Translations under genes and position numbers: made by a program
The notes under the pieces: model-generated
Told to the model about the DNA's origin: nothing
Database searches by the model: none
Seen by the model: the letters and a program-made list of their open reading frames with translations, nothing else
Shown: positions 18,790-48,728 of the stretch, in pieces
Layout of the letters: the number at the start of each line of letters is the position of its first letter
Numbering within the stretch: the stretch's first letter is position 1
From: Amphiscolops sp. MND2022
Taxonomy: Eukaryota
Direction: 5' to 3'
Assembly: GCA_964187785.1 (NCBI GenBank)
Contig: OZ076409.1
Coordinates: 58,902,001 to 58,966,000 of the forward strand
DNA: 64,000 nucleotides

Positions 18790-19301
18790 TTTTAGAGCTC
18801 CGAATCGACGTCCTAGCACATTCAAAGTCCAGACACGTACCACAAACACGCAAAAACGGTTTCTAGCCTTCCTATGACTTCCCACACACCTCCGAGGTTC
18901 AAAAATGTTAATTAGATGGAATGTATTTTTTTGGGTAAAGGCGATGACAATAATAGATCAAGCAGATTATATATCTCCAATTACCTGGAAATTAGTACAA
19001 ATACACTGACACACACCAAGACATCTGAATACAGTCACAACGAGTTTTTGAGGCAGTCCATGCAAAAATTGCATTATTCTTCTGATTAATTTCCACATTC
19101 TGAGGGCAGTTCTTTTGGTGCTGCTACGAAGCTGGACTCTTTCCAGCACGCACAGGCTCCAAACGGGGTTGTTGTGTGTTTTTCGGGGTGTGTCTAGCTG
19201 TTTGTTTTGTGTTCTGTGTGCGTGTCTTTTGTATTCTGTTTGTGTTTGTGTGTTCTTGATATGTCTTCCAGACTGACTTTGAGTACCTGCTAAGTTGGCC
19301 A

Positions 19302-19959
19302 TTTTTAGTCGGTGCTTTTCAAGAAAAGTGCCCGACTCTTATAGTGGGTAGTTTTTTCAGACCCGTAACGTTTTTTTTGCTCATTTGTTTAATTTGAACT
19401 ATGGATGTCCAAAACATACTCGAAATGCCAGAGCCTCGTCCAAAAAAAACCGACGTCCAGAACCTCGAAAACATACTAAACTCTCTTCTATGGATCTCTT
19501 GGTGTTTTTAACATAGATGCGTTTGGCACTCTGAGACGTTTCGAGAATATTTTGATTGCACCAAAATGTTTTCGTTCATTTTTTTCGACATTTTGCAACA
19601 GAATCGATGTCTTACGTTTTTCGGCACTGTGACACTGTTCAAAATTCAAAATTCTCATTTTCATTTTTCCCCGAAATTTTTTCACTGTTTCAAAAGGGTA
19701 CTTCCAATTGTTTCTGATATTTTGCAACGGGAAGGAAGGTGAAAAATCCAAATGGTGCCAGGAGCCCTTGGATTCTGCGAAAGTGTTTCGAAACTTCTTT
19801 GTGAGTTTTTCATAAAAAATGGCCAAGCACTAAAGGCATCCTTTGAGTGTTTCGAAACTTTATCGTTAGTTTTTTATAAAAAACGTCCTGAGATTATTGT
19901 AAAAAGTTTCGCATTTGAGCTTCAGGCATAGTGCCGACTTAACACGTTTCCGTCTTGTT
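19302..19959 (+). mobile_element. Helentron-associated non-autonomous element (HINE/DINE-1-like), copy 1
   Basis: T-run + AGTCGGTGC...CCGACT at the 5' end; 3' GTGCCGACT + small stem-loop + CTTGTT; no TSD. Confidence 0.7.
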
Positions 19960-20029: not shown

Positions 20030-20757
20030 CCCTGGTTGAAAAAAAATGCGTTCCTTGCAAGGATCTTGCAAGATTTTCTTTCAAGGTCTTGCAAGATAAT
20101 GCATTTTTCTGCAAGACATCTTGCAAGAATCTTGCAAGAAAAAACAATTCCTTGCAAGATTCTTCCAAGGAGAAAAATTTCGTGGAGGGTTCTCGACAAT
20201 TTTTTTTAAATTCATTGTTTTTGACTTCAAGTTGACTACTGCATCGTGACTATTAGATTCTGTCACAGAACGAGGTTTACTTACTAGAGGATTCAACCAC
20301 CAAAAAGATGCAAACTCTAGAAAATATCTCTAAAAGTGTGATCTTAGTGAAGTTATTTGAAAAGTAGTAGTACATTTCAGTGACGCAACATTTAAAATAC
20401 AGTGTCAGAGTATTCTGAAAATTTTTTCCAACTAATTGTGTTATGTATCTGTTATTGATTTGAAATTAGACTGTGCATAATATTTCGATTGAAATTATTT
20501 TTCAATTTGTTAAATTACCCTTCTGAAATAATAGTTATTAACGTTTTTGACATTATTCTCAAATCATGACTACGTTAACATAATTTCTCAGTATGAAGTA
20601 CATTGAACTCAAGAATCTTGCAAGGAAAACATTTCCTTGCAAGATCTTTCAAGGAAAAAATTTCCTTGCAAGATCTTTCAAGGAAAACATTTCCTTGCAA
20701 GATCTTTGAAGGAAAAAATTTCCTTGCAAGATCTTTCAAGGAAAACATTTCCTTGCA
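20030..20757. mobile_element. CMC/EnSpm-like MITE remnant with CTTGCAAG subterminal repeats
   Basis: Starts CCCTGG; many CTTGCAAG palindromes; 29-bp tandem unit (~4.7 copies) at 20621-20757; second end not found. Confidence 0.5.
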
Positions 20758-21152
20758 CATCGACTGCAGTACCAGCTAACATTACATAGAAGAAAAAGGC
20801 TGTGGCTTCAGATGTAGATAACAATACTTGAAAGAATGATGATCTCAAGAACTTTTTTTTTTCAAAACGACAAAACGGTATACTCTATATAATATTGAAA
20901 CTGAATACACTTGGTTAAAGTATACTGCAATCCAAAAGTTTTAGTAACAAATCAGAACAAAGTTAAAAGTTGTTTCACTGTACCGAACATTATTTTTTGC
21001 CGAAAAACTGTCCAAATATTTTGAATAATTATTTTTAGACTTTATAATATAATTTTTCAACAGAAAAGTCAAATCAAGATCCTGTCGATCATAGCAATTT
21101 TACTACAGTAGTAATCGAAAAATGAAGTAACTCATGATAATTCTGGTCCATG

Positions 21153-22052: not shown

Positions 22053-23753
22053 TGTCGCAGGCTGCCGCCTGCGATGGCAACATCTATACAATTGACCATA
22101 CGAGGCCAATTGCCCTACCTGGGACACCTCCATTATAAAACTAAAACTTTCAAACATTTAGTATTATTTTGAATATGTAATGTTGATTGATAAATTGTTT
22201 TATTATTTAAAATACATTTGACAGCAAGCTATACTGACAGGCAGAAAGGAAACGTGTTCAAATGTTTGCCTGTCCAGTATAGCTAGCTAAGCCGTCCATG
22301 GTCAATTGGCCAATCGGAGTGCAGTTTATAACAGCCATCTTAATACTCACTACGTAACTGCGCTAGTAGCTATTTAGAATGGACCAATACGGCCAATTAA
22401 CTTTGCCGGCCTTAATGTACTTTGATGCTATACTTGAATGATATTCAGTAACTACAAATAGGACGAAAGCGGCTATGCGACATAGCCGTCCCTATTCACT
22501 GTATTAATTGTCTTGGTGCTATACAGTAAATAAGGCCTATCACGGCCGGTTGACACGATGAACACGCAAGTGCTGTATACTGACCACATGAGATTGGTGT
22601 CACAATTGATTAGTGATGAAAAGACACAAGTAGCCCTCCCCCATGCAATAACAAAACGCATATATTGTTGACATGTAGTGTTGTTTTCGTATTATACTGG
22701 AATCAAATTAGAAAGCCCCAACGGTTACAGGCCGTATAGGGCTTACATGTATGTGCTCAAGCGTAATCTTGTTTTGTGAAACTGAAAGGGAACTGGAAGT
22801 CCCCTTACAGTTACTTACCATATGTATTTTACATGAATTATGTTTACATGTAAAAGTGTTGATATATATTACGTTACACATGAGTGTTATTACCTACTCA
22901 TCATATGGCCTAAACAGGCGCTTTGATCTAACCGCTCACATAGGCCTACGATGATGTCATGTTACTATTTATAGTGCTGACGTATCTATTTTTAGTTCGC
23001 GTGCTATTTTTAGTATCATGACCATGATAATTTTGCCTGTCATGTCCTCTGGGGTATATATACCCTAGTCGGCCTGACAAAGGTTAATTATAGTTTTGCA
23101 GTTATCTGATACATCACGCTCATTTTGGTTAACCTGAAAATAGAAACACTTGTCCACAGGAACAATTCAAATATTTTCTCCTGGAATAACATTTTCAATG
23201 CCTTCTACTAGGAGACAAAAAGCAAAGGCTAGAAAGTCAAGAGAACTAGATATGTTGTCCGATTATGGAAACATGGACATAATGCTAGGCGATGGAAATT
23301 CCAACTCTATAGAAAGAGCGTTGAACAGCCTCATTAACGCCCCAGATAGGCAGCAAGACTTTCAATCTTTTTCAAATCAAAAAAACTCATCTCAGGAAAA
23401 TGAGATTAGAGACATTGATAATAGAAATGAACCTATTGGGGAAAATAGACTATTAGAGTCAATCAATACTTTGTCAGGAGAAATGAATGCTAGAATGTCA
23501 AGGGAAATGGAGAGTATGATGGACTTCATGCAAACTCAGATTAGTAGGGCGATAAACTCTGCCATTAGTGAAAGGATAATACCTGAGATACAAAACATGA
23601 TGAGAAGTTCAACTTTGGTTCAACAAGGCATTGAGCCCAGTTCGTCTCTAAATGAGGATGAGATCGGAAGTATGTGGAAAAATACAAAACCTACAAAGAA
23701 GGACTCTAGGTCCGCTTGTGATTTGAGAGATCATACGGACAGTATTCCTTACA
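22053..23753 (+). repeat. 5' LTR of element A (1701 bp)
   Basis: Direct repeat of 36672-38365 with about 30 differences counted by eye (~98% identity). Confidence 0.97.
23052..23065 (+). promoter_or_regulatory. Probable LTR TATA box within a perfect palindrome GGGTATATATACCC
   Basis: ~135 bp upstream of the gag ATG; the solo LTR has GGGTATAGATACC at the equivalent position. Confidence 0.55.
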
Positions 23754-23767
23754 TGGTGACAGGAGCT
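23754..23767 (+). promoter_or_regulatory. Primer-binding site TGGTGACAGGAGCT (tRNA-Leu-like, inferred)
   Basis: TGG directly after the LTR's CA; identical in element B (53376-53389, -); one mismatch from the TGGTGTCAGGAG tRNA-Leu-type PBS. Confidence 0.8.
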
Positions 23768-24878
23768 AACGAACTCCAACATCCGATTCCTGAATTCCTC
23801 ACAGGACGAATTCACTCTCAGCCCAACCTCCTAAGACAAGAATCCACTCATGATACAACCATGGATACAACCAATAGCAGAGACTGTTCCGGCAGAACAG
23901 CCACAAGACCCTATCAATAGACTAGCAGATGTCCTGGTAAACCTCCAAAACAAACCCCACTCGATGACAATTCGACCAGTCACGACGAACCTCATGACAT
24001 TTGACGGCAAAACAGAGAAATTCGATTCGTTTGAAGATTTGTTTCATACAATGATAAAGATGCAGCCCGCTATGACTGAACAAATGAAAATAAACCATTT
24101 TCATTCCCTGCTCAGAAAAGGAGCACTGCAAACTTTCCGAAATATAAACCCCATAAACCGTCAAACATTAGAGGACGTATTGGTCATGTTCCGCAGAAAG
24201 TACGTCAAACCTGAGTCCCAGGCCACAGCTAAACATAAGTGGCATGGGCTCATCTTTGATCCCAACACGATGAAATAACCAATTTTCTCAAAGAACTCAA
24301 CCAGGGTGCCGAGAAAGCCTTCGGGGAAAACGCCAAGAGCATGACCGATAGCCTCTTATACGCCAAATTACCCCCGAACTCAAGAGATCAGTGAATATGG
24401 CCCGACTGGAAAACGGGACCTACGAGGAGATTGTGGCACATCTGGAAAGAGAACTCGAATTAAACGCATTAGAAGAATCTGACGACCTACCCATTGCTAC
24501 AATGGCTTCGTCGTCCAACAAATCCCGAAATTTACTATCCTATGGCATTGACACCAACAAAAATAACCAATGCTCATACTGCAAGGCTGAGGACCACTTC
24601 TGGAAAAATTGTCCAAAACTGAAAAAGAAGAAAGAATCAGAGGCCAAAGATGGCAAGAAGCCTCAACGCCAAACTTAACCAGAATGCCCCACCTACAGCA
24701 AAACCAATCATCCAGCAGAGAAATGTTGGTGTGGCGCTGGTGCCCATCTTCGTCCAAAAAGAAATAGACAAGACTCCTCCAAAGATACAGAGCCCTCTGA
24801 AGACGAAGGCACTCGCACCAAGAACGAAAAATCCATAACGTCCTCATCAGGCCAATCGAATTCCAAACAGCCTGAATC

Positions 24879-24885
24879 AAAAAAC
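24879..24885 (+). promoter_or_regulatory. -1 ribosomal frameshift slippery site A_AAA_AAC
   Basis: In the gag frame just before TAA; the -1 frame opens into LILPRLQ (pol start). Element B has G_AAA_AAC-TGA at 51708-51702. Confidence 0.75.
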
Positions 24886-27584
24886 TAATTTTGCCACGAC
24901 TCCAAATCTCTGATCAAATGTCGATAGGACAATATGTCGTATCAGACCCAGCTAATATCGCCTACAAGCAGTCACAAAAGGACATTACAGGGACCCCATC
25001 GACTGTCTGTCAGCAGCAGATGTGGAAGCCTGTACTCAAACTCAATACATTATTCACAGTGACCACCCATATCTATATCGACGTAATAACCTCACTAAAG
25101 ACTCAGAAACCCAATTCCGACCCTTACAAATTGTCGAAGGATACAACCCCCAATACTATGACCCTGAGTACGGCAAAGACCCGTACTGGGATGATGATAT
25201 ATACGATAAACACAATTTACAATTCCGGAATGATGACTACCCGCCAACGGACGATGAGGATGACCCCGACATTGTAGACAATATACTGTCCCGGGCACTT
25301 ATTGAACCGTGGCAACCAAATTTTGATGCAATCAAAGATCAGCCACATGCAGAAGAGACACAGGCCACACCTGGCCTTCTCGACGAGACAGCCTTCATAC
25401 ATGTCCTTGTAACTAAAGAAGGAGAACCAGCGTATAAACCCTTATCCACAAACGTCGGACTCAAATACAAAAAACGGATGCTATATTTCCCGATGCACTT
25501 TGGGAAACTAACCATAGACGGCCTCATAGACACTGGAGCTCACTCCAGCGCAATACCGGAAGCAGACCTCAGGAAAATACGCCTATTGGCGCCCCAATCC
25601 ATAGTCAAAGAGGGACCTGCCCCGACGTTTCAAATTATGGTCGCAAACGGACAATTGGAAACCCCAAAGAGTACTGTTGAACTCAAGTTCGAAGTCGGAG
25701 ATATTGAATTCCATGAAATATTTATAGTAATGGAAAAACTGACTGGCCCTATCATAGGACTAATGTTCCTCCAGAGGAATCATCAGTACTGGACAAGGCA
25801 TTCTCATTTTCCCATATTTCTCGATGCAACTCAAAACGGCTGACCATAAATACTCCAACGTACTGGAACCAATACTTAACCCAGACGATATCACAATACC
25901 ACCCAATGACCGTACTTTGGTAGAGATCAAATCCCAAATATACAATGAAAACACGGTCACAGGAGTGTTGCAACCCAGTGATCTCCTCCATGAAAAAGGC
26001 GACATCACATTCTGTGCCGCAATAGTCACATTGACTAGTTGAAACGTCAACGTTCATATCAACAATTTCACAGACCAACCGTACAAGCTTAAAAAGGGAC
26101 TACACATAGCAAACTTTTCCGTACTAACACCGGAACAGATGAAACACGTCAAACCAATTGACCCGGTGTCCACATGGCATCTCCTCAATGAAAACGAAGA
26201 GGATGCGATCTACTATGTCAGTAGTCTACTCAAGGCTAACAGGAACAATGACCAATATGAGCAGTACTGGTTTCCAACGCCAGAAAACCCAGGGGACGAA
26301 GATTCCCATACTCCCATCCAACGACGACTCTTCAAGAATTACGAAACCTCCAAGAAGCTGAACAATTGAACCCTCAGAATGTTGATGAGTCACGCCGCAA
26401 TTTCCTTGGCATTTTCGACTGGAAAGACTCCATGCTGCAGCAACATGGAATCAAAAAGATCGAATCGCTTCTAGTCGAATACCATGACATATTCGCACGA
26501 CACAGATTTGACATTGGACTTAATGAAGAATTCACAGTCAAGCTGACCCCTAAGGACGATTCGCCTGCTTACAGCCAAAGTCTTCCAACTCCAGTCAATT
26601 TAAAAGAGGACATACTCGTCGAAATGGCCCTCTTACACAAATATGGCATAATAACTACACTGCCATTTTCGAAATACGCCAGCCCCATATTTGCACAGAA
26701 AAAACCGAATGGGAAGCTAAGCCTACTAGTCGACCTGAGGAAAATTAATAACTTCATTTCGGATGACTATATAAACAACAATCATCCGGTTAGCACCCTA
26801 ACGGACGCTGCACAACATATGGCAGGAAAGAAACTGTTCTGTAAACTTGACTGTTCACAGGCATACCACTGTCTCCCAATGGCGGACCAAAGGTCCGTTG
26901 AGATGCTTGCGTTCAATTTTGCAAGCCGCACCTTTGCGTACAGATGACTTGCTCAGGGCCTTAGCAGGGCATTATCAGCCTTTTCAAGTTTTATGAGGGA
27001 ATACCTTGATAAAGTTATCAAAGCTGATCAATATGTCGACGACATTGGCATAGCCGCCAACGACGCGGACCATCTCATCAAAAATTTGAAAGCAACCTTT
27101 GAGTGTATTAGACATGCGGGCCTTAAACTAACAATGCACAAATGTCACTTCGGGGCAACGGAAATCGACTTCTTGGGAAGAACAAATACTCCGGAGGGAG
27201 TCAAACCACAAAAGGAGCGAATAACAAACTCCTTAGAAAAAACCAAATTCCCCAAATCTAAAAAGGCTCTGCAAAGATATCTTGGTTTCCTCAATTATTA
27301 CAGGAACTATATCCCAAGATTATCTGAAAAATTAGCTCCCTTCTTCGAACTTCTCAAAAAAGACGAAAAAGTCCTGGTGACTACAGAACTAATACAACAG
27401 TTCAATGAAATCAACCGAGACCTCGACAAATGTAGCCAATTGGCCCTGAAGCAACCTTTGCCAAACAAGCAACTGGTCCTGATGACAGACGCTAGTTTCA
27501 CAGCGGCCGGCTACGCCATACTTACCGAGGACGACCCAAACCAGAAATATTCATCTGTCAAAAAATCATACGCTCCTCAAAAAC

Positions 27585-29667
27585 ATTTGAAAATGGCCTC
27601 AGGGGAATATCGCCGTCAATGGCACAAATATTTGCCACTAGCAGTGCTCAATTATAACACAACTTATCATTCCAGCATTGGTTGCGAACCGAGCAAGGTC
27701 TTTCACGGAAGAATTCCCTACAATGTTCTTGATCATAAACTTGGAAATAATCCTAATAAGGATTTCCTCCCGACGACGGACTTTGCTGAAGAATTACAAC
27801 AGAGAACGAAAGTTCTCATTGACAAAACGAAGCATAACATTAGCATAACATTAGCCAAAATTCAGAACGAAGTCTATTCTGAAGAACTACTCCAGCAAGA
27901 TATCCGATACAAACACTATCTTAACAACTTGGACCGAATAGTCCTTAAAGACGAAATAGTCACACGACAATATTATGATGAAACTGGACGAGTCAAGTAT
28001 CACCAGGTTCTCTTACCAAAACACCTTTTGACAGAATTGTTACAGACCTTACACGGAACGGCGCACAAACACCCTGGCATATCGAAAATGTTACAAGAAA
28101 TCCGACAGAAATACTACTACCCCGGTATAGCAAAACATGTTAAAAAATGGGTAGAAGGATGTGTAACTTGCGCAAAAGATAAACGGGTTCCAAACAACAC
28201 GATAACACCTGAATTGCTTAACTTGCCAAAATGGGACCTTGGACCAGAGGACGCAATGCAAATCGATTTACTCCCAAACTTGCCAACAAGCGGAGGTTAT
28301 CAAACAGTGATGACAGCAATAGATGTCTTTTCAAGATATCTGTTTGCCTACCCGCTAGTTGAGGCAACAGCCTCTAACACGGCAAAGGTCTTAATAGACG
28401 TCATGACAAAGCATTCATATTTACCAACTACGATCATCACCGACAAAGGAACCGCTTTTACATCAAAAATTATTGCAGAGATAACGCAAGTAATGGAAAT
28501 AACCCTAAAAAGTGCGACGACTAAACGCCCACAAACAATTGGCAAACTCGAGAGAACTCACGCCTCATTGAAGACAAATTTGAAAATGGCCTCAGGGGAA
28601 TATCGCCGTCAATGGCACAAATATTTGCCACTAGCAGTGCTCAATTATAACACAACTTATCATTCCAGCATTGGTTGCGAACCGAGCAAGGTCTTTCACG
28701 GAAGAATTCCCTACAATGTTCTTGATCATAAACTTGGAAATAATCCTAATAAGGATTTCCTCCCGACGACGGACTTTGCTGAAGAATTACAACAGAGAAC
28801 GAAAGTTCTCATTGACAAAACGAAGCATAACATTAGCATAACATTAGCCAAAATTCAGAACGAAGACTATTCTGAAGAACTACTCCAGCAAGATATCCGA
28901 TACAAACACTATCTTAACAACTTGGACCGAATAGTCCTTAAAGACGAAATAGTCACACGACAATATTATGATGAAACTGGACGAGTCAAGTATCACCAGG
29001 TTCTCTTACCAAAACACCTTTTGACAGAATTGTTACAGGCCTTACACGGAACGGCGCACAAACACCCTGGCATATCGAAAATGTTACAAGAAATCCGACA
29101 GAAATACTACTACCCCGGTATAGCAAAACATGTTAAAAAATGGGTAGAAGGATGTGTAACTTGCGCAAAAGATAAACGGGTTCCAAACAACACGATAACA
29201 CCTGAATTGCTTAACTTGCCAAAATGGGACCTTGGACCAGAGGACGCAATGCAAATCGATTTACTCCCAAACTTGCCAACAAGCGGAGGTTATCAAACAG
29301 TGATGACAGCAATAGATGTCTTTTCAAGATATCTGTTTGCCTACCCGCTAGTTGAGGCAACAGCCTCTAACACGGCAAAGGTCCTTATAGACGTCATGAC
29401 AAAGCATTCATATTTACCAACTACGATCATCACCGACAAAGGAACCGCTTTTACATCAAAAATTATTGCAGAGATAACGCAAGTAATGGAAATAACCCTA
29501 AAAAGTGCGACGACTAAACACCCACAAACAATTGGCAAACTCGAGAGAACTCACGCCTCATTGAAGACAAATTTGAAAATGGCCTCAGGGGAATATCGCC
29601 GTCAATGGCACAAATATTTGCCACTAGCAGTGCTCAATTATAACACAACTTATCATTCCAGCATTGG
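27585..29667 (+). repeat. 993-bp tandem duplication (2.1 copies) of integrase sequence
   Basis: ATTTGAAAATGGCC recurs at 27585, 28578 and 29571; 4 substitutions seen between the two full copies. Confidence 0.95.
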
Positions 29668-30815
29668 AGTCCAGCATTGGAGTCCAGCATTGGAGTTATT
29701 GCAGTCATACCTGAAATATAAGGAGTACTACGACCGGAAAGCCAAAGCAGCTCCTCTCAGTGAACAAGAAATTTGTTTTATCCTACAGCCTAAAGCGGAT
29801 AATCAAGGATCAAAAATACCATTTAGAGAATACCGCTGGATCGGTCCTTATCGAATTGAAAAGGTATTACCTAACGACAATTATATTGTCCGCCGGTTAA
29901 ATACGAATAAAACGCAGATATTACACCGAATCCGCCTGAAAAAATTTGTTCCAAACACGCCTTTAGAGGACAAATATGCCAAAGAGAAATTGCAACCAGA
30001 TGATGAAATAATCATACCGCAAGATGATTTATACACCATCTCATGGGAAGCAGATTTTGACTACCATGTCTTCGAGCCGAGACGAGACGATAATACGGAT
30101 GAAGAATTACAAACACCAGACAGCGATGCTGGTGTCACGACTAGTGACTACGTCATTTATGACAACGCTGATGACAACGCGGTAAGGCCGGGGAAGGCCA
30201 CCAGCCGAGACGGCACAATTACACGAGACGCAAATGACGTCACCGGATTGAATGAACGAACCAAAATGAATGAAAATGAAGCGGGACCGAGTACGGCTGC
30301 TAGCCGAGACGCACCTATAGTGCATGACGAACATGACGTTAACGAGAATGCTGCGCGAGATGAACAAAGCAGCGAGACAGGAAGGCCGAGAACGGCCACT
30401 AGCCGAAATAATCACAATGGTGGCAATACACCTCCTACTTCAGAAAAGAACGTGAATGACGTCACAAATGAATTAGAAGGCGAGGAAAGCTCTCTTAGTG
30501 AGGGGGATGATATTACCGTGCCCGGAATATCGAATGGAAAAACAAATGAAAAAACTGATGAAAACTTTAGCCCTAGAGGGGGGAAATATAATCTTCGACC
30601 TAACCCCAACCCCAACTATACTGATGAATACAGATACTAGCCAGAAATGTTAAATTGTGTCCCCATTTATTTTACTGCCCGAGAAGGCATGTTTTTTCAT
30701 TGGGACCTTTCTGACTTCCTTTAAAACAGACTAACTGCATGAACATACAAACAGAAAAATACAAAACAAATATACAAATTGAAAGTCTAAGATAACAAAT
30801 GTACTCTATGTACAT

Positions 30816-33800
30816 TTAGTCTTTAGATGAGCCTTGACGCAGCTCCTTCACCGTCTTGGAAAACTCGCTAGGAGGAATATCGCCGAAATAAGCCAATTCC
30901 TGGGCCTTACCAGCAGCCCAATTGATCTTGCGCACAGCAGAGCTGGTAACAGAGGACGAACGAGACGTACTAGCAGCCACAGCAGTTGAAATTCCTTTCA
31001 GATTTTGTAAGCCGTAGTTAAAGTTTTTAGGAACTTGGCTCGACCATAAACGTCCACATGAGACCAAGGATCTCCGGCAAACTGGTATGAATTAAACTGA
31101 CCAGACAATTCTTTGTATGCAGCCAAAGCGGACTCAGTAGTGCAAACGGCTATCGCATCAGGGCAGTTGGCCAGATAAGACTGTGCAGGTAAAATCACAG
31201 CGGAAAGACGACAATGCGAACTAGATGTATCTACATCCTGGAGCTTGACAGCTGGAAGGTCATGATGGTCCTCAGTGATGCAGAGACAACAGAGCCTGAA
31301 TAAATGAAAGAGCCTTGAACGACTCTGGAAAGCGGCCATGGGCACGAGGAAGTCCAGCATATCTGGAATTGTGCCAGGGGAGTTCTTCATAGACGAGTAA
31401 GTACTGCGTAGGTAGTCCACAAACTCGAAATATTCATCTCGACACTCGCTCTTGGAAGCTTCGCCTACCCAGCCTCGAACTCGGAAACTATTGTACAGGG
31501 AATCGAAACAGAAAGTAACCTGATTGAGCGGCAAAGAGAGCAATACGTGAGGGTCGAAACAACCCATCCCATGCACAATGTTAGTGGTGAAATGCACGTT
31601 GCGCAACAGAGACCTCAATAAGGACACGATGTAACCTCGGGCCTCAATTCCAAAATTCTCCCTCTCCTTGGCAACGAGGGCATCTAGACTTGGTTGGCCC
31701 GGCTTCTTATCATCTTGATGTCGTTTCATTTTGGCTCGACAAGCTTGGTCCAAGTCGGTCTCCAATTTCAACCGGCTCAGGAAGTCTCGGCTGGATAACT
31801 GTTTCAAGTCATCGGGAAACAATTGTAGGAGCTCAGTCCATTCGGCATCATTGGGAGTACACTTCGGGAGAATCGCCCTGTGACACAAGCGACGAATAAA
31901 GCGGCAGTACTGTCCGTAGACAAACAAAGTTGCATCTCGTCGTCCTGCCAGGCTGCGTTCAAAGCACTTAGTTTCTAAACAAATACAGACTCAAAAGCGT
32001 GAAAACGAGGCACCATACCAAAAGCGTGCTAGACATGACCTAGAGGCCGAGTTCGATAGTTGGAAACGGATGGAAAGTAGAACTAGACAAACATAGGAAA
32101 AAAACTAACAATCTCGAACCAAACAGGAGAAGAACTCAAGCTTGACGGTGAAGAAGTCGTCTTGGATTATCACCCATTCTAGACTCTGTATCTGAAAAGG
32201 GAAATTATACTTCCAAAGGAGTAAGACGCAAGTTATACTGGCCTAAGACAATACTGGGAGATTGAGACCATCCTAACACCGAAGCGGAATGAGAGATTAA
32301 AGACATACAAACCTTGTTCTTGACACCTTGCAAGACTTGTGTTGGGGCCGTCTTCGTCATGAAGTCAAGGATGTCCTTCCAGTGTTTGATGAGTTCAATG
32401 CACAGAGCTGGAATTTTCCTCAACTGAATGTCGCATGCAGCCGAAGCCTACAAAATGGGGACGAAATAACTTGGAAAGACCCGAATTACGTTTACCACAA
32501 AAGGAAAATTCAACTACAAAACTGCCGACGAGGAAATAAAAAACCAAAACAGTGGATTAAAAATAGATAAAAACCTTGCAAAGCTCCAGACACTGAAGGG
32601 CCCATGGCTGGCTCTGGCACCCACGCAGGAAGACAACCAGATACTTGAGTTGGGTGAACATGTCGATTCGGCCGAAGACATGCTTAGTCTGAAGTACATT
32701 TGGCTGCATGAGTTCCGGCAGAGAGATCACTTCAAATCGGAATGGATATTGAAAATACGTGCGAGATGGCAGACAAATAACAATCTGGATAAGTCTCCCC
32801 TTGGTGGTGACGATAAAGTTAAACTCTTGCCAGTAAGTCATTCTTCCAGAACCGGATCGATAGGCAACGGTAAACGCCCTGTGTGGTAAATTCAAGCCAC
32901 TGGAGACGACATGTCCTGAGATGTCGGAAAGGCCGCGCATGAAGATGTGGTGGAAGATATTCTGAAAAAGAGAATATAGGCTCAGTCGAAGTAATCCCAC
33001 AACAAATTGCCATCAGGATTCTAGGAAAAGAAATACTTACGGTAAGTGTGGCGGACCCCCAGTCGAAAGAAGAAAACAGGGCTTGATGGTTGGTGAATTG
33101 CCCGACTTTTGTCCAGAGACTTTGGAGTAGTGAGAAACTTCCGTCCCTGGGAATGAAGGTGCCAATCAGGGAAATTAGAGTGCTAGTCCTCAAGTCATCA
33201 TGGTTAGTGATACCCCCAATGCTGGCCATATAATCTTCAAAAAACGGATACCGATCTCCTGCTTCGATCAGAGGGACATCCATGAATAACGGTTTCTCTT
33301 TCTCTAATTCGACGGGAGTAAGGACCCAGCCGTCTTTGCCTCTGACTTGGTGAGTCACATTGCCGGTGATTTCGTCGGTTTCCTGCAAGTGCACATACCT
33401 CCACTTCTGGTCCTTCCTCAAATGGCCCTCTGTCCTGTAGTGTCGCAAAATCTCCCTGGCGCCCTTGGAATATATTGACACGTTCGTTTTGCCCAGCATA
33501 CAATAAAATTTGAATTTGTTGTGTACGGGATCGATCGAGTACACTGGATGCCTTTAAAGTAAGCGTCTTCCATGACTTTTCCGGGCTTACTGAGCAGTTT
33601 CCTTCTTTTCCGCGGAGGACTGGGAGTAGCTACATCGGATTCTCGTGGCCGTCTAAGGACGGATAATGGCTGGTGGTCAGTGCTGCTGTACCCACTTCCG
33701 GAAGTGGGTGTCGTGACCTCAGCGCGAGACGTGCTGGGAGTGAGCCTAAAAGGCGTTTCAGGAAGTTTTGTTTTAGGACCAGTCTCACTTACACCATCTG

Positions 33801-34740
33801 TTCCAGATATGGATCCCACCTGATACGGGTCCTCGTCAGTGTTGAACGCCCCGTTCGTATAGCCATCACTGGTAATTCCTCCGAAGCTGCTTTCGTCACC
33901 TGAACTGATGGAAGGTCGACGCGCAGGCGTAGGGCAACGCCGGGGCATACTTTTCTTCTTGTCTTGTGAAGTCCCACTCGTGGCATGTAACAAGAGGGAC
34001 TTCATCATGTGATAAGAAGATATCACAGATTCATCGGCAACTGTGCGAAGGATAGCGTGGACCTGATCTTCATTGAAGGCAATGGTCGTATGACCGGCTG
34101 GCAATTGGACGGGGGTGGCTGCTGTGAAATACTTCCTAATGACCGATCTTCCTTTGACTGATAGTTGCCTATCGGAATTGGCAACCCTAACGCGATATTG
34201 CTCCTGCTCTGTGTCGCTGTGGCCAGACTCGGCCCGGAATTCTCCCTCGAACTCGGGGAAAGCAGAAGGATCCCACGCCATGGAGGACGTAACGGGAGGA
34301 AATGCATCTACACCAGAGCTATCTAAAAGTTCTTCAGCATCGCTAGTATCTCCATAAAGGGGAGCAGCTCCGGATTGCGAAGTCGACTCGGGCTCGATGG
34401 CAGGTCCAGTTTTCTCCTCGCTCACGTCCTGACTCACGACGATTGGGTCAGAGACAGAAACTTTCAAAATTTCAGAGAAGATTGTCGACGTAATTGTGGC
34501 GGGCATAGGTACCGGTATGTCACTGATCTCAGATGCACGTGTTGGGAATTCCATACATGTGGCGATTCTTTCAATAAAAGCAGAGACGCTCTCCTCTGTG
34601 GACGGACTAGAAAAGGACGTTTGGGACAAAGGCCGGACAGGGTCAACTTGTGCCGCGTTACCTTGCTGCTCTACTTCAATAGATCCGTTTCCATCACCAC
34701 TGGGAACAGTGGATTTTGGCATTTCCTTCTCAGAAGACAT
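30816..34740 (-). pseudogene. Antisense spliced accessory gene of element A: hAT-transposase-derived protein with a BED-like finger (~1150 aa; lesions in this copy)
   Basis: Exons 34740-33041, 32961-32575, 32447-32313, 32191-32110 and 31974-30816, joined by GT-AG introns; homologous along its length to 44835-48728 in element B. Confidence 0.8.
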
Positions 34741-35920
34741 ATCTAAACAGAAGGATATAAAGTTTTGCGGACAACTTCCTGAATATGAGTCCATGAATAA
34801 CCGCTATTAAAACCTTCCGGAAGTGAAAAGAAAAAATTCCAAATTCTAAACTTGTTTAGTGAAAATGGACAGGAAGTCAACGAACGAGAGGAAGAGCCTT
34901 GATCAAGCTTATTTCCGTTCAAAAATTAAAAAGACCAAATAGCTTACCTGCGGATGATGGACGTGTAAGGACTGAAGGCAGTTGCTCACAAATGCAAGGG
35001 TACGTGTTGCACCTGTACGCTCGGAACAGCAACAGAGGACCAGTAAGGCCGGATGAATTGCAGGAGTGAAAACTTGGAAGATGGATTGGAGAAGATTCCA
35101 AGAAGGAAAGTGACGGTAGTGGCGTCGGGACAGAAGCGTAAATAGTGACGGAAAGAAAATAAATTGTTCGCTGATGAACTGATTTAAAATGATGAAGACT
35201 AGAAGACTGACTAAAGACCAAGTAAACAATGGATAAATACGAATATGGAAATGTAAAAATTATTGAATTGGAAGAAGATGAAAGTGATTGCAAGAGCAAA
35301 GTTGGAGTTCGTGGCAAACTGGATTTGATGTCATATGTTTTTACAATTATGAGGATTATTTTTTGGATGGAACCTGCCAGAGATATCCACGTTATTCTTA
35401 TTTCGAAACATGTATTTCCATTATTTCATTATTTATTTATTTTGGTTATTTTATAATTTCCTTATTTGGATTATTATTATTAATTCCGCCATTTTGAAAT
35501 GAAGGCTGTAAAGGCGATTCATATTGGCTATCGCGGCGACGCGCCGCGTGCGGCCTTAAAACTTGATTACCCACTCTTGAAATTCTCAAGTGGATATCAA
35601 CAGCAGATAAACACTCAACGGCGTCATTGATGGCTCTTTGCCGCATCAGGCAAACGACTGAAGTGATGATGTAAACAAGGTGGTTTATTGGAAACATCAA
35701 AGGATGTTTAGGAGAATTTATCAATGAAACGATCACCGGGAGAGATGAAACCCCGGGAAAAATCATGAGACTTGAAAATATTTCAGACGAAGTCAGCAAG
35801 GAGAAGTTATCATTCTCTCTTCTGAAGCTTTCAATAACAGTTGGTTAGCGGAACTTGAAAATTCCAAAACTCATTCCAATTCTTATAAAAATTGCTAAGA
35901 AATTCATAAAAGCAAGATTC

Positions 35921-36757
35921 ATGGCCGCCTGATACCCTGAAGACTTCCGAGGCGCGGCGCCCGGCGGTGTAGACATAATCTGCCTATCCAGTGACGAAGA
36001 GGAGGAAATGGGTGACCAGAGCATGAATTCAGTGCTAGACCTCCAATTGTCATCGGATGACGGAGAGATGGATGACGAAATCATGATGATGGCCCATAGT
36101 GTCGAGATGCAACTATCATCGCCTATCCCAATACCTGGTCCTTCAACAGCTCTGCGAATTAGAGATGAAGCCCCCCAATATAACTTGCCAAGATACGGGA
36201 CCTCTGGGACGAGCTTTGCAGCAAGGCCTACTCTCGACCAATCCTTCTTCTCACTAGGAAAAGGAAATGGCCCGATACGGCGAGATGACCGAGTCCGCAG
36301 CAATCACCCTATCAAGCTGTGTAGGGAAATCATTCCCATGGTGGATATTCCTATGTCGCCCCCACCTGAAGAGAGAGGACCAATTTACGATTCCTATTCG
36401 GTGGACGGTCAGAGTAAAATCTCCCAACAGTCTTTGGACACAGTTGCAAACCACTTCCAAGGAATAGAAATTGAGACGAACAGCCCAATGGGGAATTACT
36501 CAGACTGTGTGATATGTGGAAAATCTACCTTACAAATTCAGAGCGAAGCAGTCACGGATTATTTGCGCAAGACGGCCATTTTGGGAGAATCGGCAGATCA
36601 ACTAGAAGCGCGCAAAAGAGCCTTTATGGAAGGAATGCAGGTGGGCACTTTCCTATTACTACCAGGGGGAGTGTCGCAGGCTGCCGCCTGCGATGGCAAC
36701 ATCTATACAATTGACCATACGAGGCCAATTGCTCTACCTGGGACACTTCCATTATAA
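35921..36757 (+). CDS. Accessory ORF3 of element A (acidic SIM-like N-terminus, CxxC), ending inside the 3' LTR
   Basis: Open from 36008 to 36757; a homologous in-frame ATG at 35921 is followed by a premature TGA at 35930; homologue in element B (43631-42900, -). Confidence 0.75.
36664..36671 (+). promoter_or_regulatory. Polypurine tract AGGGGGAG
   Basis: Immediately precedes the TG of the 3' LTR; element B has the related CCAGGGGTAT. Confidence 0.75.
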
Positions 36758-38365
36758 AACTAAAACTTTCAAACATTTAGTATTATTTTGAATATGTAAA
36801 GTTGATTGATGAATTGTTTTATTATTTAAAATACATTTGACAGCAAGCTATACTGACAGGCAGAAAGGAAACGTGTTCAAATGTTTGCCTGTCCAGTATA
36901 GCTAGCTAAGCCGTCCATGGTCAATTGGCCAATCAGAGTGCAGTTTATAACAGCCATCTTATTACTCATTACGTAACTGCGCTAGTAGCTATTTAGAATG
37001 GACCAATACGGCCAATTAACTTTGCCGGCCTTAATGTACTTTGATGCTATACTTGAATGATATTCAGTAACTACAAATAGGACGAAAGCGGCTATGCGAC
37101 ATAGCCGTCCCTATTCACTGTATTAATTGTCTAGGTGCTATACAGTAAATAAGGCCTATCACGGCCGGTTGACACGATGAACACTCAAGTGCTGTTTACT
37201 GACCACATGAGATTGGTGTCACAATTGATTAGTGATGAAAAGACACAAGTAGCCCTCCCCCATCCAATAACAAAACGCATATATTGTTGACATGTAGTGG
37301 TGTTTTTCGTATTATACTGGGATCAAATTAGAAAGCCCCAACGGTTACAGGCCGTATAGGGCTTACATGTATGTGCTCAAGCGTAATGTTGTTTTGTGAA
37401 ACTGAAAGGGAACTGGAAGTCCCCTTACAGTTACTTACCATATGTATTTTACATGAATTATGTTTACATGTAAAAGTGTTGATATATATAACGTTACACA
37501 TGAGTGTTATTACCTACTCGTCATATGGCCTAAACAGGCGCTTTGATCTAACCGCTCACATAGGCCTACGATGATGTCATGTTACTATTTATAGTGCTGA
37601 CGTATCTATTGTTAGTTCGCGTGCTGTTTTTAGTATCATGACCATGATAATTTTGCCTGTCATGTCCTCTGGGGTATATATACCCTAGTCGGCCTGACAA
37701 AGGTTAATCATAGTTTTGCAGTTATCTGATACATCACGCTCATTTTGGTTAACCTGAAAATAGAAACACTTGTCCACAGGAACAATTCAAATATTTTCTC
37801 CTGGAATAACATTTTCAATGCCTTCTACTATGAGACAAAAAGCAAAGGCTAGAAAGTCAAGAGAGCTAGATATGTTGTCCGATTATGGAAACATGGACAT
37901 AATGCTAGGCGATGGAAATTCCAACTCTATAGAAAGAGAGTTGAACAGCCTCATTAACGCCCCAGATAGGCAGCAAGACTTTCAATCTTTTTCAAAACTC
38001 ATCTCAGGAAAATGAGATTAGAGACATTGATAATAGAAATGAACCTATTGGGGAAAATAGACTATTAGAGTCAATCAATATTTTGTCAGGAGAAATGAAT
38101 GCTAGAATGTCAAGGGAAATGGAGAGTATGATGGACTTCATGCAAACTCAGATTAGTAGGGCGATAAACTCTGCCATTAGTGAAAGGATAATACCTGAGA
38201 TACAAAACATGATGGGAAGTTCAACTTTGGTTCAACAAGGCATTGGGCCCAGTTCGTCTCTAAATGAGGATGAGATCGGAAATATGTGGAAAAATACAAA
38301 ACTTACAAAGAAGGACTCTAGGTCCGCTTGTGATTTGAGAGATCATACGGACACTATTCCTTACA
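36672..38365 (+). repeat. 3' LTR of element A (1694 bp)
   Basis: Direct repeat of 22053-23753; ends TTACA, followed by the TSD GATAC. Confidence 0.97.
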
Positions 38366-38370
38366 GATAC

Positions 38371-39054
38371 CTTCAACTCTCTGAGGCTGACTCAATTTAT
38401 CCGAACTATATTAGCGTTCAAACCTCATTCAGTACAAGTTTCCCGATTAGAATTCAAACGTTTCCAAATCGGCTTCGAATGCCTACTACAAGGAAGCAGA
38501 AAAGCAAGGCGAGAAAATCTGAAGAAGCAGAAATGCTGTCCGACTTAGAGAATATTGACATAAGGCTTGGTAGGAACCACATTCAAAGACAGGATAATGA
38601 ATTCGGAAATTTGGCCAGACGGCCTGAAAGTCCTACTTATGATGTTTTAGTATATCATAATAACAATTCTCACTCTAACTCAGGTGAGAATGAAATCAGG
38701 AGACTTACCGGAAATGGTCATAATTCAGGAGAAATTGATTCTAGTGGTGAGATCAATAGACTGTCAGGAGAACTAAACCGAAGAATCACTCAAAGATGAA
38801 TGGACTAATCAACAGTGTTAGTTTGCAAATTCAGAAGGCTATAAGTGAGGCCTTTAATGAGCAAGTGTTGCCACCAATTCAAGCCTCTCTTAGGTCTGGT
38901 TCCGGAAAAATGCCCCAAAAGGGATGGAACGTTGGGATCGAGAGACCGGAATATAGAACCGGAGGATTTTTCAACCGCAAGGTCAGAAGTAGTTCACGGG
39001 ATGAGTTTCCCCGAAATCCAGTTTTTGATGACGACGAGGAGGAATCTCATTACA
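38371..39054 (+). mobile_element. Solo LTR, 3' part (carries a gag N-terminus homologue from ATG 38479)
   Basis: MPTTRKQKSKARKSEEAEMLSD; ends TTACA followed by CCATG (39055-39059), which matches 21148-21152. Confidence 0.85.
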
Positions 39055-41792: not shown

Positions 41793-42905
41793 TGTAAGGC
41801 CTACTATCTCTAGTGACTCTTAGATCACAAGCAGACCGTGAGACCTTCTTTGTAGTTTTAGTTTTGAACCCATTGTGCCTCTCAGTATTCTCCTGACTAT
41901 TGAGGGACGAACCGGCTTCAGTGTCCCGATTTCCTGAGGATGACCTTGAGCTGACTATATTTTGAATCTCTGGGATTACTCTATCAGCTATTGCAGTGCT
42001 AATCGCCCTTTTTAGTTGGATGTGCATCATGGACATTATTGAGTCCATCTCCTGAGAGAGTCTCATATTAAACTCACTATTAAAAGTTTCCATGGTCTCC
42101 TGAAATCTATCTTGCCCGGGAATTATGTTTTCGCGGACATAGTGTTCAGAACCATTTTCATGGAAATCCTTCTCCCTAGGACGTGAGTTAGATTCATTGT
42201 CACAATGACCTTCTGAATTTCCAATTACATTTGAAAAATCACGCTCAAATGTGTTGATATTGTCATTTCCAAGAATAACGTCCTTATTTTCAAAATCGGA
42301 CATCATGTCCATTTCCCTTGACTTTCTAGCTCTCGCTTTCTGGCGTAAGAGACTGTTGCAAAAGGTAAGAATTTAGTTATTCTGTAGGCTTGCAAATCAG
42401 GATTTTCGTTAACAAGTAACATTTATTATGGTTAACAAACAATTTTCCGTAAGTAGTAACAAAATAAGATTGTCTCCGGGACTACGTGTCCCAGCTATAT
42501 ATGTATATGATTCTGCATGACTAGAGGAGCAGGTCATGATGCTTTGTTTAACTCTTAGTTATTCTAAAAATAGATATTAGGACTGCGTGTCCTTGCTCTA
42601 GTCCGGTGACGCAATTCTAATTAGAGAAACTGCACTACGTAATATTCTATTTTTAGCAACAGGGCAGCAGCAAATTACCGCGTAGCTTTGAAGGTCTTTC
42701 GGCTTGAGTATGCGACATCATCAGTTAATATACAACTAGCTTTATTAATATTTCACTGCATGAAATACATGTGGAGAGAAATAACAATTTGCCATTGAGG
42801 CTATATTATAAATAATTCAAAGCAACGTGTCAATTCCTTAAAGGACATAAATTTTTCATGGTCTGAGTAACTTGAGGGGGAAAGGGACTATGGGGGCCTG
42901 CGACA
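41793..42905 (-). repeat. 3' LTR of element B (internal deletion near its 5' end)
   Basis: Direct repeat of ~53390-54377. Confidence 0.9.
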
Positions 42906-43631
42906 ATACCCCTGGTATAAGTAGAAACGTCCCCACCGACATCCCGTCTAGGAAAGGTCAGGAAATCTCTAGCTCAGTCAGTGTTTCTCCAAGGACTGTT
43001 GTCTTACTCAAGTAGTTGTTTACAGCGTCTGACTGGATTTGTGACACTGATTTTCGGCAAACCACACAGTCTGAGTAGTTCACAAACATTGAGTCCTATG
43101 ACACAGCAATATCTCTGAGGTGATTGGAGCTGGAACCCACTGTGACTGTCTCGTCGGAATTTGAACAGCTAGGCGCGTTCGCCCTGTAATCTGGGCCTCT
43201 GTCAGCAGCGGGAGGAGACAATGGGGTGTCCAGTTGAGGCACTAGATTACGGCAAACGCTAATGGGGTGATTGTTCCTCACCCTGTCGTCGCCAGCTAAC
43301 GGGCCGTTTCCATTTCCAAGGTTGAAATACCTTTGGCGAAATGTGGGGAACGGCGGTCGGCTTGGCCTCGGTGTCGGGCACCTCTTTTGCGAGTCAGTGG
43401 ACCCAGCGGCTGGTATCGGTATAAAGTCGGCCAACTGCTTTCCACGCATCTCCCGATTAGTTGTATTTCCTCCGTTTCTTCGTCCGATGAAGAGACCAGA
43501 GCGTCCACTGAGCCAGAACTGATGCAGTCAATGTGGTCAGGTTCGTCGCTGGACAGATATTTAATGGCCGGTTTCCTTTGGGACTGGGCCGCACCAATAA
43601 AATCCATGGAGAAAGTTTCTTGCAAAGCCAT
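42900..43631 (-). pseudogene. ORF3 of element B
   Basis: MALQETFSMDFIGAA, YLSSDE, LGNGNGPLAGDDRVRNNHPI, SDCVVCRKS..IQSDAV..YL, GMSVGTFLLIPG; frameshifted. Confidence 0.8.
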
Positions 43632-47800: not shown

Positions 47801-48728
47801 ATTTAACAGGGGCTTGTCAGACCCGCGTCTAGAAAAAAAAACAACGGGAAGAAGGGACCTCAAGTCTAATTTGGTGCAGCTGTGGAGGATGTCCGAGAGG
47901 AATTTGCATCCAAGGCCAGAGGTTACATCGTTTTTGTTAGAGGCTCTTCTCGCGGACATTAGTTTCAATGTCGACATCGTCCGGGGCATGAGTTCCTTTG
48001 ATCCTTATGTCCTCCACAATCTTCATTTAGAGCAAGCCACATTCTGTTTTTCTGCGCTCTAAGAGTCTTTCAGCCTTCGAGGCTGGTTAGTCAATTTGCC
48101 CAAAACTGAAGCCCGAGATGAAAATATCGAATTTCTGGATGATTTCAGAAAGGCACACTCCAACATGCAAAACAGTCTGGGGGTGTTTACTGACATGGTC
48201 CGGTTTTTAGTTGCAATGCCTGAATTGAGGATGCGGGAGCATTTATTCTACATCTTGCGGTTGAGTTGTCTTTGTTTGACCGGCAGCTCACCAGAACTTC
48301 CTTCAGTCAAGTTCTAAAAAGTAGATTGCGGTGATCCGCGAAGCCGACTTTTCGATGTAACATTGCCCTCACAGTCCGACCTCGTCAGTGTACCTGATGC
48401 CGTTTCCATATGCACTAGCGAAGCTTGCTTGGGAACATATAGAGACCTCGAATCTAATTTTAGTAGTGGAAACGTGACCGGAGACCCTTGGGCACATGTT
48501 GACAGTTTTGGGAAGGCCGACTTTCAAAAGGTTTTGACTTCGGTCTGCAGGACATTGGATACAAAGGGAGGCAAGGATGTTCACCCTGGCAATTGTTCAA
48601 CCCCTAGCGTTACCGGAAAGCAGAAGCAGTCCCCAGTCAAAGGCAAGAAAGTTACTTTTGGATCAAGTGCAACTCCTGGAGTCGAGAAGTCTGTCCGGTG
48701 GTCTACCCCAGGATCATCCAAACTTTAA
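44835..48728 (+). pseudogene. Antisense hAT-derived accessory gene of element B
   Basis: LPIGYSTVAFNERQIH, DPEHNKHKFYCQIYKTNVS, FDWGGATL, GDPWAHVD and GSSKL* all match element A; donors at 46586, 47146 and 47428. Confidence 0.8.

Follow-up and report, generated by a model that had tools for sequence, protein, structure and literature searches.

What is a gene resembling a hAT transposase doing on the antisense strand of a Gypsy-type retrotransposon, between pol and the 3' LTR? The question is raised by a window of 64,000 nucleotides from Amphiscolops sp. MND2022 (GCA_964187785.1, contig OZ076409.1, positions 58,902,001–58,966,000 of the forward strand), which contains two decayed copies of one abundant, recently active Gypsy-type lineage (Table 1). 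The layout of this lineage is LTR (with the gag start)–PBS–gag–(-1 slip)–pol, followed by an antisense gene of five exons, a spacer and a sense gene, ORF3, which reaches into the 3' LTR; the region from pol to the 3' LTR is ~6 kb long. An earlier note on this DNA had proposed this gene order, the coding overlap of both LTR ends and a stable, selected accessory region. The order is found in element 1 and again, on the minus strand, in element 2, with gag starting in the 5' LTR and ORF3 ending in the 3' LTR. It is also constant in copies whose accessory proteins are as low as 23–27% identical, and the median dN/dS of both accessory genes, a check set beforehand, is ~0.04–0.12, far from 1. The layout and the selection are almost certainly real.

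Table 1. Features of the two elements, in window coordinates
Feature	Position	Strand	Remarks
Element 1 5' LTR	22053–23753	+	1.7 kb; last 556 nt encode the Gag N-terminus
gag	23198–24888	+	Broken in element 1
PBS	23754–23765	+	12 nt, coding in the gag frame
Slippery heptamer A AAA AAC	24879–24885	+	gag stop directly after (to 24888)
pol	24879–30640	+	PR, dUTPase-like, RT, RNase H, integrase; broken in element 1
Antisense gene	34794 to 30816	-	Five exons, four GT-AG introns
Exon A	33041–34794	-	Long low-complexity N-terminus, basic NLS-like motif, finger; putative start codon
Exon B	32575–32961	-	RNase H-like fold; ~100 nt shorter in element 1 than in relatives
Exon B2	32313–32447	-	Between exons B and B3
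Exon B3	32110–32191	-	GT-AG boundaries
Exon C (last)	30816–31974	-	Helical region
Spacer	34795–35890		~1.1 kb; presumed divergent promoter region
ORF3	35891/35921–36757	+	~290 codons; runs through the PPT and 86 nt into the 3' LTR
Polypurine tract (PPT)	36664–36671	+	Read from sequence; also coding in ORF3
Element 1 3' LTR	36672–38365	+	97.8% identical to the 5' LTR
Element 2	~41793–54380	-	Diverged, more decayed relative, same order
Element 2 antisense gene	~44783–48722	+	Naturally without intron 3

Element 1 displays the hallmarks of an LTR element: TG...CA ends, a 5-bp target duplication (GATAC), a PBS and a PPT. Frame breaks and stops are present in its gag, pol and both accessory genes, and its pol has lost most of RNase H and carries a 993-bp tandem duplication at 27585–29667. 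Element 2 is missing much of the PR–RT region, and its 5' LTR is truncated by another repeat. The accessory genes of the two elements show 36–44% amino-acid identity.

The gag ATG is found 544–649 nt upstream of the PBS in 32 of 33 5' halves, and in 27 of these 33 the gag frame is open through the PBS, as it is in element 1. The LTR-encoded part of gag has a median dN/dS of 0.099. Since both LTR ends are protein-coding, every 3' LTR has a gag start that reads into flanking DNA. In the copia-type element Ty1, gag likewise begins inside the 5' LTR and the PBS is part of the coding sequence, but the LTR of Ty1 contributes only about 40 nt of gag, and the present lineage is of the Gypsy type. The PBS is complementary to the 3' end of a host tRNA-Leu(CAG), which was called by ARAGORN at one of the four loci scanned. 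In relatives, Gag is ~560–600 codons long and contains a capsid-like DUF1759 region (a match below the Pfam cut-off) and zinc knuckles. The heptamer A AAA AAC was found in 24 of 33 5' halves with a filter of at least 300 open codons upstream (the nine others were not returned), and pol, which opens in the -1 frame, would be reached by a -1 frameshift. Folding of the 70 nt downstream gave no strong or conserved hairpin (-2 to -11 kcal/mol).

The pol product of relatives matches the Pfam families RVT_1, RT_RNaseH, RT_RNaseH_2, Integrase_H2C2 and rve, in the Gypsy-type order PR–RT–RNase H–integrase; element 1 pol additionally matches Integrase_p58_C below the cut-off. Three of four relatives' pols contain a dUTPase-like domain (Pfam E-values of 3e-5 to 1.5e-3). 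The RT is under strong constraint (median dN/dS 0.016, 73/406 pairs), and a search for its homologues returned close relatives only. In a sequence search of the PDB, Ty3 RT is among the best matches of pol (E 4e-28), together with what we take to be a foamy-type PR–RT (E 3e-31) and a caulimovirus-type polyprotein (E 4e-26). The element had been called virus-like and its accessory genes non-env. The latter agrees with an env search in which none of the Env families came out above E 0.1. In hydropathy, the maxima are 0.65–1.87 and mostly below 1.6, the segment concerned is flanked by conserved polar motifs, and the signal peptide and membrane anchor that mark errantiviral env were not found. The term virus-like thus fits the compact, overlapping layout, but not the content, as neither env nor a clear membrane segment was found.

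In the antisense gene, exact GT..AG dinucleotides are present at the predicted sites of introns 1–4 in 44, 47, 42 and 48 of 57 sequences, respectively, and introns 2, 3 and 4 are exactly absent, in frame, in one (copy L083), seven and two of the 57. The gene is very probably spliced from the antisense strand, and the element as a whole is predicted to be transcribed in both directions. Splicing from the antisense strand would, as we strongly infer, be the reason why the introns are not lost when the element is copied via its sense genomic RNA. The end of the gene adjoins the pol stop in a convergent arrangement, and 11 of 21 copies have an AATAAA-type signal no more than 65 nt away. In only 6 of 15 copies, a candidate non-coding exon is seen further upstream, its donor lying ~155 nt ahead of the antisense ATG.

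The antisense gene is under purifying selection across the lineage. Its dN/dS (Nei–Gojobori medians of unsaturated pairs only, as for all values given here) is 0.043 in the finger (9/496 pairs), 0.061 in exon B (17/435), 0.076 in exon C (20/465) and 0.107 in the N-terminal part of exon A (9/325), and exon C read out of frame gives 1.07. The same accessory proteins are present in an independent protein collection; scans of JGI metagenomes and IMG/VR with the finger alignment found no relative.

The proposed hAT ancestry of this gene is backed by two fold searches and by no sequence test. In Foldseek, the model of the finger and exon B (pLDDT 54, including 28 intron-derived residues) ranks Hermes 1–3, with a best E-value of 1.8e-3. 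In VIA, its residues 205–324 superimpose onto Hermes 142–266 (Z 7.2, rmsd 3.3, 115 residues, the longest alignment among 50 rows), and residues 1–276 of the exon C model (pLDDT 83) onto Hermes 363–609 (Z 5.0, rmsd 5.1, 165 residues, again the longest). The two matching pieces are collinear with Hermes. The scores are modest, with Z below 8 and no Foldseek match at E<=0.001, including for exon C, and by Z other RNase H-like folds equal Hermes for the exon B model in VIA. No sequence search names either accessory protein: Pfam reports no hAT family (PF05699, PF14291, zf-BED) in the antisense protein, the PDB sequence search gave nothing for either, the ESM Atlas holds no usable match for exon C or ORF3, and hhalign against a shallow alignment of eight host hAT transposases was not significant. 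A PF14291 search of the genome found no match, and neither did its control. From the fold models, the antisense gene in all likelihood descends from a hAT transposase, and the hAT domain order strongly appears to be retained: a BED-like finger (C-x2-C...H-x5-H), an RNase H-like core and a helical insertion/C-terminal part.

Several features set the protein apart from Hermes and other hAT transposases. When catalytic residues are mapped by motif position rather than residue-level superposition, no Asp is found at the two core positions in 19 of 19 rows: the first site is E/T/A/V, the second S/T/F and the last mostly hydrophobic, and the CxxH of host hATs is absent. The RNase H-like core retains a Gly-Cys and an invariant Glu, which stands two residues before the first mapped site. 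Catalysis has likely been lost. No inverted repeat is common to the three regions scanned, so that hAT-type TIRs appear to be missing as well. Furthermore, the protein has ~400 extra N-terminal residues. ZBED-type genes are domesticated hAT transposases; here the gene is carried and kept by a retrotransposon, not by the host.

ORF3 encodes a small acidic protein with invariant Cys/His, for which Pfam and PDB sequence searches gave no relevant match. In element 1 it has one early stop, and its last 28 codons lie inside the 3' LTR. The first ATG, at 35921, is preceded by an ATT at 35891. This ATT is present in 38 of 43 sequences, with A at -3 in 41 and G at +4 in 42; 41 of 43 have no upstream in-frame ATG and all 43 lack an AG acceptor. 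The synonymous share is 0.40 in frame and 0.04–0.06 in five control frames. ORF3 probably starts at this AUU. Its dN/dS is 0.115 (22/378 pairs), and an acidic SIM-like (SUMO-binding-like) motif, a short pattern of our own definition, is present in 12 of 15 proteins and missing in three. The adjacent spacer contains a GGAAG(T/C) cluster near the antisense start (34814–34877), a recombination breakpoint zone and three 9-mers that are common to 12 of 15 spacers, compared with at most five in 50 shuffles. The BED finger of Hermes binds AAGT, according to the available text of PMC10368747.

At least 150 ORF3 matches were obtained from 4,876 candidates. ORF3 is present in 55 of 55 fetched accessory halves; 52 of them also have the finger together with exons B and C, and three lack the antisense gene. 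These counts are not independent, and all fetched copies were picked via part of the accessory region and none via pol. Among the matches listed, at least ~19 of 131 integrase matches adjoin an exon C match, as judged by eye. All 15 copies picked by the antisense gene alone lie inside LTR elements. Paired LTRs, found in 18 of 20 and 15 of 15 copies, are 96.3–100% identical, and by this measure the lineage is recently mobile.

Pairwise identities indicate that the hAT-like gene moves as a cassette, being exchanged among backbones that are nearly identical. In five pairs, the backbone is mostly 90–99% identical and the cassette mostly 45–74%, and converse pairs also exist; RT identity above 95% is combined with exon C identity below 65% in 90 of 378 pairs. 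Exon C identity above 90% is combined with ORF3 identity below 70% in five pairs. The two accessory genes therefore recombine apart, contrary to the single linked module proposed in the earlier note, relative to which cassette swapping, the AUU start and SIM-like motif of ORF3 and the dUTPase-like domain of pol are new.

The closest precedent is found in the antisense ORFs of plant Retand/Grande elements. According to the available text of PMC7264820 and PMC11963269, Tat/Retand elements (Retand, Grande gene23, RIRE2, Wallabi) have a pol-to-3' LTR region of 3–6.5 kb with conserved antisense ORFs, TRP28 ('transposase 28'), predicted to bind DNA, is carried by 97% of Retand clusters, and Grande gene23, which is nuclear, is driven by a promoter of its own. 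The long region and the conserved antisense ORF are shared with the present lineage. However, TRP28 is a small domain confined to plants, with an unclear origin, whereas here a whole hAT-type domain series is found, and Pfam gives no TRP28 (PF04195) match in the accessory proteins. The word 'intron' is absent from the main text of PMC11963269, compared with five exons here, and the present lineage adds a second conserved sense gene and coding at both LTR ends. Bdelloid rotifer LTR elements and planarian Burro are described in the available text of PMC5408684 and PMC6431247 as Gypsy-like; they carry a dUTPase-like domain, which in Burro lies between PR and RT, and additional ORFs or domains other than env. 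The extras named there are env, GDSL, DEDDy, MATH, BIR and similar, unlike the hAT-like gene and ORF3; 'transposase' and 'intron' are absent from the main text of PMC5408684 and 'antisense' from the available text of PMC6431247. In the available text of PMC6719617 and PMC5418596, VANC of VANDAL and the Gypsy-encoded plant mobile domain are element-encoded nuclear accessory proteins tied to silencing control. VANC, as described there, belongs to DNA transposons and is family-specific, whereas the present cassettes cross families; the likeness is one of (proposed) role. Searches of the openly available literature yielded no description of this layout; a Repbase entry may exist.

We propose that an ancestor of this Gypsy lineage acquired a hAT DNA transposon, placed head-to-head downstream of pol, and retained the transposase gene for its own use as an accessory gene. 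The hAT-like protein would, with strong indications, have gained its long low-complexity N-terminus with the NLS-like motif. The resulting ~1,200-residue protein may be a nuclear DNA-binding regulator that keeps copies transcribed or protects them against silencing by the host, in the manner of VANC in VANDAL. Tight recognition of an LTR sequence specific to one family is disfavoured, as cassettes move freely between LTR types. ORF3 would be made from an internal spacer promoter with a weak AUU start, and its SIM-like motif could engage SUMO-marked silencing machinery. Template switching in reverse transcription would shuffle the hAT-like cassette among backbones, and many divergent versions would coexist because of it, as expected in host–element conflict. 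A domesticated, inactive transposase serving as the element's own regulator, with a pro-element role in chromatin or transcription, is a tentative reading with a little less than an even chance. The fuller version, a domesticated, inactive, DNA-binding counter-silencing factor that is spliced from the antisense strand and maintained as a set of deeply divergent interchangeable alleles, paired with an AUU-initiated SUMO-binding protein, is possible though doubtful.

An inactive transposase could instead aid integration by binding cDNA ends or chromatin and bringing the pre-integration complex into the nucleus or towards favoured sites. hAT transposases bind ends as oligomers, the finger and the NLS-like motif are the best conserved parts of the protein, and Pfam reports no chromodomain on the C-terminus of element 1 pol. 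The same role has been discussed for plant antisense ORFs (PMC7264820). It is unlikely here, as the gene is freely exchanged among backbones whose LTR ends differ and, being presumably transcribed apart from gag–pol, has no evident route into particles. A repressive action of the protein, or of its antisense RNA, on the element or on competing families, with cassette types as immunity groups, is quite unlikely. Inactive transposase derivatives often act as repressors, and the convergent antisense end at the pol stop and the coexistence of many divergent cassette types would suit such self-restraint; RNA-only action, however, leaves dN/dS below 0.1 unexplained, and gene-carrying lineages are very abundant.

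Two divergent genes with high allelic diversity might also form a selfish passenger pair (poison and antidote, or drive), or the retained Glu and Gly-Cys might belong to a still-active nuclease, in either case spreading without aiding replication. We give this a slim chance: recombination separates ORF3 from the hAT-like gene, which would not be tolerated in a matched pair, three copies have no terminal inverted repeats in common, and the gene-selected copies all lie inside LTR elements. A neutral remnant left by a nested hAT insertion, or an artefact of assembly, would fit the broken state of both window copies, the three halves without the gene and the partly duplicated pol of the window. 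Such an origin has next to no probability: it is already refuted by dN/dS, and the conservation of splice sites, the loss of introns in frame and the proteins of the independent collection speak against it too.

Transposase domestication is known as an activity of hosts. Here, a retrotransposon appears to have domesticated a transposase, one class of mobile element taming another. The origin of plant antisense accessory genes has been called unknown (PMC7264820), and descent from hAT would give an origin for one antisense accessory gene. The lineage also shows a route by which introns may persist inside an LTR element. Its young copies number in the hundreds, and cassette swaps and deletions have arisen naturally among them. 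Counter-silencing encoded by elements is rarely documented, according to the available text of PMC6719617; if the proposed role is true, this would be an anti-silencing system encoded by an element in a eukaryote with introns, beyond the cases in plants.

The window comes from a eukaryotic assembly of 1.07 Gb, where it spans G000:C1:58902001-58966000, and both copies of the Gypsy-type lineage in it are decayed. In element 1, which is flanked by a GATAC target duplication, each of the four genes is interrupted by stops and broken reading frames, and pol has lost most of RNase H and contains a tandem duplication; element 2 has suffered a large PR–RT loss. Selection is therefore not demonstrable from the window alone, and copies from the same genome were compared. 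Given the adjacent gag-like remnant (see table), element 1 may have inserted into the LTR of an older relative. Near-perfect internal tandem duplications also occur in the copies L048/L028 (2.2 kb) and L070 (a repeated LTR–gag block) and, like that in element 1, suggest template-switch products or assembly artefacts.

Features of the lineage and neighbouring repeats in the window
Feature	Coordinates	Strand	Remarks
Element 1 LTRs	22053-23753 and 36672-38365	+	1.7 kb each, 97.8% identical
Element 2	about 41793-54380	-	accessory proteins in common with element 1, 36-44% identity
11-nt motif 3' of slippery site	24889-24900		nearly invariant in the families scored; strong hairpin absent
Near-perfect tandem duplication	27585-29667		993 bp, element 1 pol
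Degenerate sequence resembling gag N-terminus	38370-38800		immediately 3' of element 1 3' LTR
Third related LTR	55466-55548	-	begins here, apparently truncated; beyond the repeat cutting off the element 2 5' LTR
Separate reverse-transcriptase fragment	8002-8748		Pfam RVT_1, E 2.5e-20; outside the lineage's elements
Palindromic tandem repeat of 29 bp; members of a small dispersed repeat family	20586-20788, 19299-19728, 54380-56470

A genome search with ORF3 gave at least 150 scored matches among 4,876 candidates, with open frames mostly of about 295–315 codons. The 55 accessory halves compared (the pol-to-3' LTR side of a copy) were selected by the spacer (20), ORF3 (20), exons A/B (6) or exon C (9), and none by pol. 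In this set, selected through the accessory region, ORF3 is found in 55/55, and exons B and C together with the finger are present in 18/20, 19/20, 6/6 and 9/9 copies of these four groups. For 35 copies the 5' halves were also taken; the atypical L056 and L058 were excluded from subsequent counts. LTR pairs are found in 18/20 and 15/15 copies (96.3–100% identity), many with 5-bp duplications.

The antisense gene, whose exons sum to about 1,200 residues, has introns of 64 to 190 nt. Exact GT..AG dinucleotides stand at the predicted sites of introns 1–4 in 44, 47, 42 and 48 of 57 sequences, the remainder being mismatched, odd or unscored. Precise in-frame absence of an intron is seen for intron 2 (one copy), intron 3 (seven) and intron 4 (two), with element 2 among them, and the database proteins P0128, P0139, P0187 and P0263 span the same junctions. 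The splice sites that the earlier note had called conserved are indeed so, and there is strong comparative evidence for a spliced gene of five exons. In L061, L063, L069 and L071, intron 1 is 84 nt long and stop-free, preserving the frame if retained. Median dN/dS values for the gene are 0.043–0.107, far from ~1, for 9–20 usable pairs of 325–496; synonymous-saturated pairs, the majority, were dropped, and those remaining are not independent. These ratios, with the presence of the region across copies selected through it, bear out the stable, selected accessory region proposed in the earlier note. An exon C profile matches 656 clusters (E ≤ 0.001) in a 50%-identity protein library. The best match of one of these, P0187, among this genome's scored candidates is at most 31%, so the gene is probably present in other species too.

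Pfam and profile comparison with eight host hAT transposases gave no significant match to this gene. The host genome is rich in ordinary hAT transposases, with at least 150 PF05699 matches. Some of these keep intact motifs and long open frames; those fetched (L091–L102) show no sequence resemblance to the antisense gene. In the predicted structures, the finger and exon B model (pLDDT 54) has a β-β-β-α-β-α core, and Foldseek places the hAT transposase Hermes at ranks 1–3 (best E 1.8e-3). In VIA, model residues 205–324 align with Hermes 142–266 (Z 7.2, rmsd 3.3, 115 residues); unrelated RNase H-like folds tie Hermes by Z, and the Hermes alignment is the longest among the matches listed. For the exon C model (pLDDT 83), Foldseek returned nothing at E ≤ 0.001; in a wider structure search Hermes ranked 6 (Z 5.0, rmsd 5.1, 165 residues; model 1–276 versus Hermes 363–609), and none of the other 49 matches listed aligns over more than 92 residues, most of them over a single helical hairpin. 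Because two separate pieces match Hermes collinearly, as predicted beforehand, the models make it very probable that the gene is hAT-derived. The catalytic acidic residues and CxxH of hAT are not retained, by motif-position comparison with host hAT transposases, and no terminal inverted repeats are shared by the three accessory regions scanned.

In relatives, the pol domain order is PR, dUTPase-like, RT, RNase H and integrase (Pfam). The gag ATG lies 544–649 nt upstream of the PBS in 32/33 copies, with the frame open through the PBS in 27/33, and the LTR-encoded part of Gag (median dN/dS 0.099, 92 of 435 pairs usable) is, judging from codon comparison, under purifying selection. The PBS is complementary to host tRNA-Leu(CAG). 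Right after the LTR of L056 (locus 5359–6911) the match extends over about 20 nt versus 12 elsewhere, as would be expected if reverse transcriptase had copied the primer tRNA, which supports tRNA-Leu priming. A tRNA-Leu-type 3' motif also occurs in a large tandem array (G000:C8:35.59–35.65 Mb; unit about 296 bp; 760 matches genome-wide). In 24/33 copies gag ends in A AAA AAC and a stop, with pol in the -1 frame; the 11-nt motif that follows may stimulate frameshifting or reflect a constraint on the coding sequence. In L053 (4422–9272, element orientation) gag and pol are fused in a single frame. Integrase-bearing frames of about 1,737 and 1,797 codons recur and mark further young families.

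No named homologue of ORF3 was found in Pfam, PDB sequences or the ESM Atlas, and all relatives among the at least 120 matches listed are unnamed. ORF3 carries invariant Cys/His residues and, in 12/15 proteins, an acidic SIM-like motif, scored with a pattern made for this analysis on the SIM consensus. Env features were sought and none found, in agreement with its initial description as a non-env gene. A 10-codon basic, protein-like stretch precedes its first ATG, with a synonymous share of 0.40 versus 0.04–0.06 in control frames (11 copies). The putative start, in a strong start context, is ATT in 38/43 copies (12/55 did not match the pattern); upstream of it there is no ATG in 41/43, and no splice acceptor was found. 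On these patterns we lean slightly towards initiation at AUU.

Among 28 copies, RT has a median identity of 94%, against 47% in exon C and 46% in ORF3. Five copy pairs have backbones mostly 90–99% identical and cassettes mostly 45–74% identical, and converse pairs also occur; the breakpoints lie just 3' of the pol stop and in mid-spacer. A GGAAG(T/C) cluster upstream of the hAT-like gene belongs to the exchanged region. The swap pairs and breakpoint positions thus indicate that the gene moves with this cluster as a cassette and that ORF3 goes with the LTR. Of the single accessory module envisaged originally, selection on the region stands, but the union of the two genes in one unit does not.

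The antisense orientation would permit intron retention through retrotransposition, since the genomic RNA, by established retroelement biology, should be the other strand. A nuclear, finger-bearing, inactive transposase could serve the element's transcription or shield the element from silencing; such a pro-element role, the simplest reading of a selected inactive transposase in a selfish element, is plausible, and we advance it tentatively. That the protein is instead an integration helper is unlikely, and that it acts in self-restraint is less likely again. A selfish passenger pair of hAT-like gene and ORF3, the two partners that cassette exchange separates, is improbable, and a neutral relic, set beside the dN/dS values, is scarcely credible.

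Like this lineage, plant Tat/Retand elements are known to carry antisense ORFs in the stretch from pol to the 3' LTR (PMC7264820; PMC11963269). Rotifer and planarian elements (PMC5408684; PMC6431247) share extra ORFs and a dUTPase with this lineage and its dUTPase-like domain, and PMC2774666 gives Tat and fungal chromoviruses as Gypsy carriers of extra genes; PMC13524379 adds nothing further. Literature searches at the level of listings and abstracts turned up no LTR element in which a spliced gene of hAT origin is combined with cassette exchange and with a second gene overlapping the LTR. The lineage is real and under selection, a variant of the known antisense-ORF Gypsy elements, and it offers a specific, testable origin for an antisense accessory gene, namely a hAT transposase.
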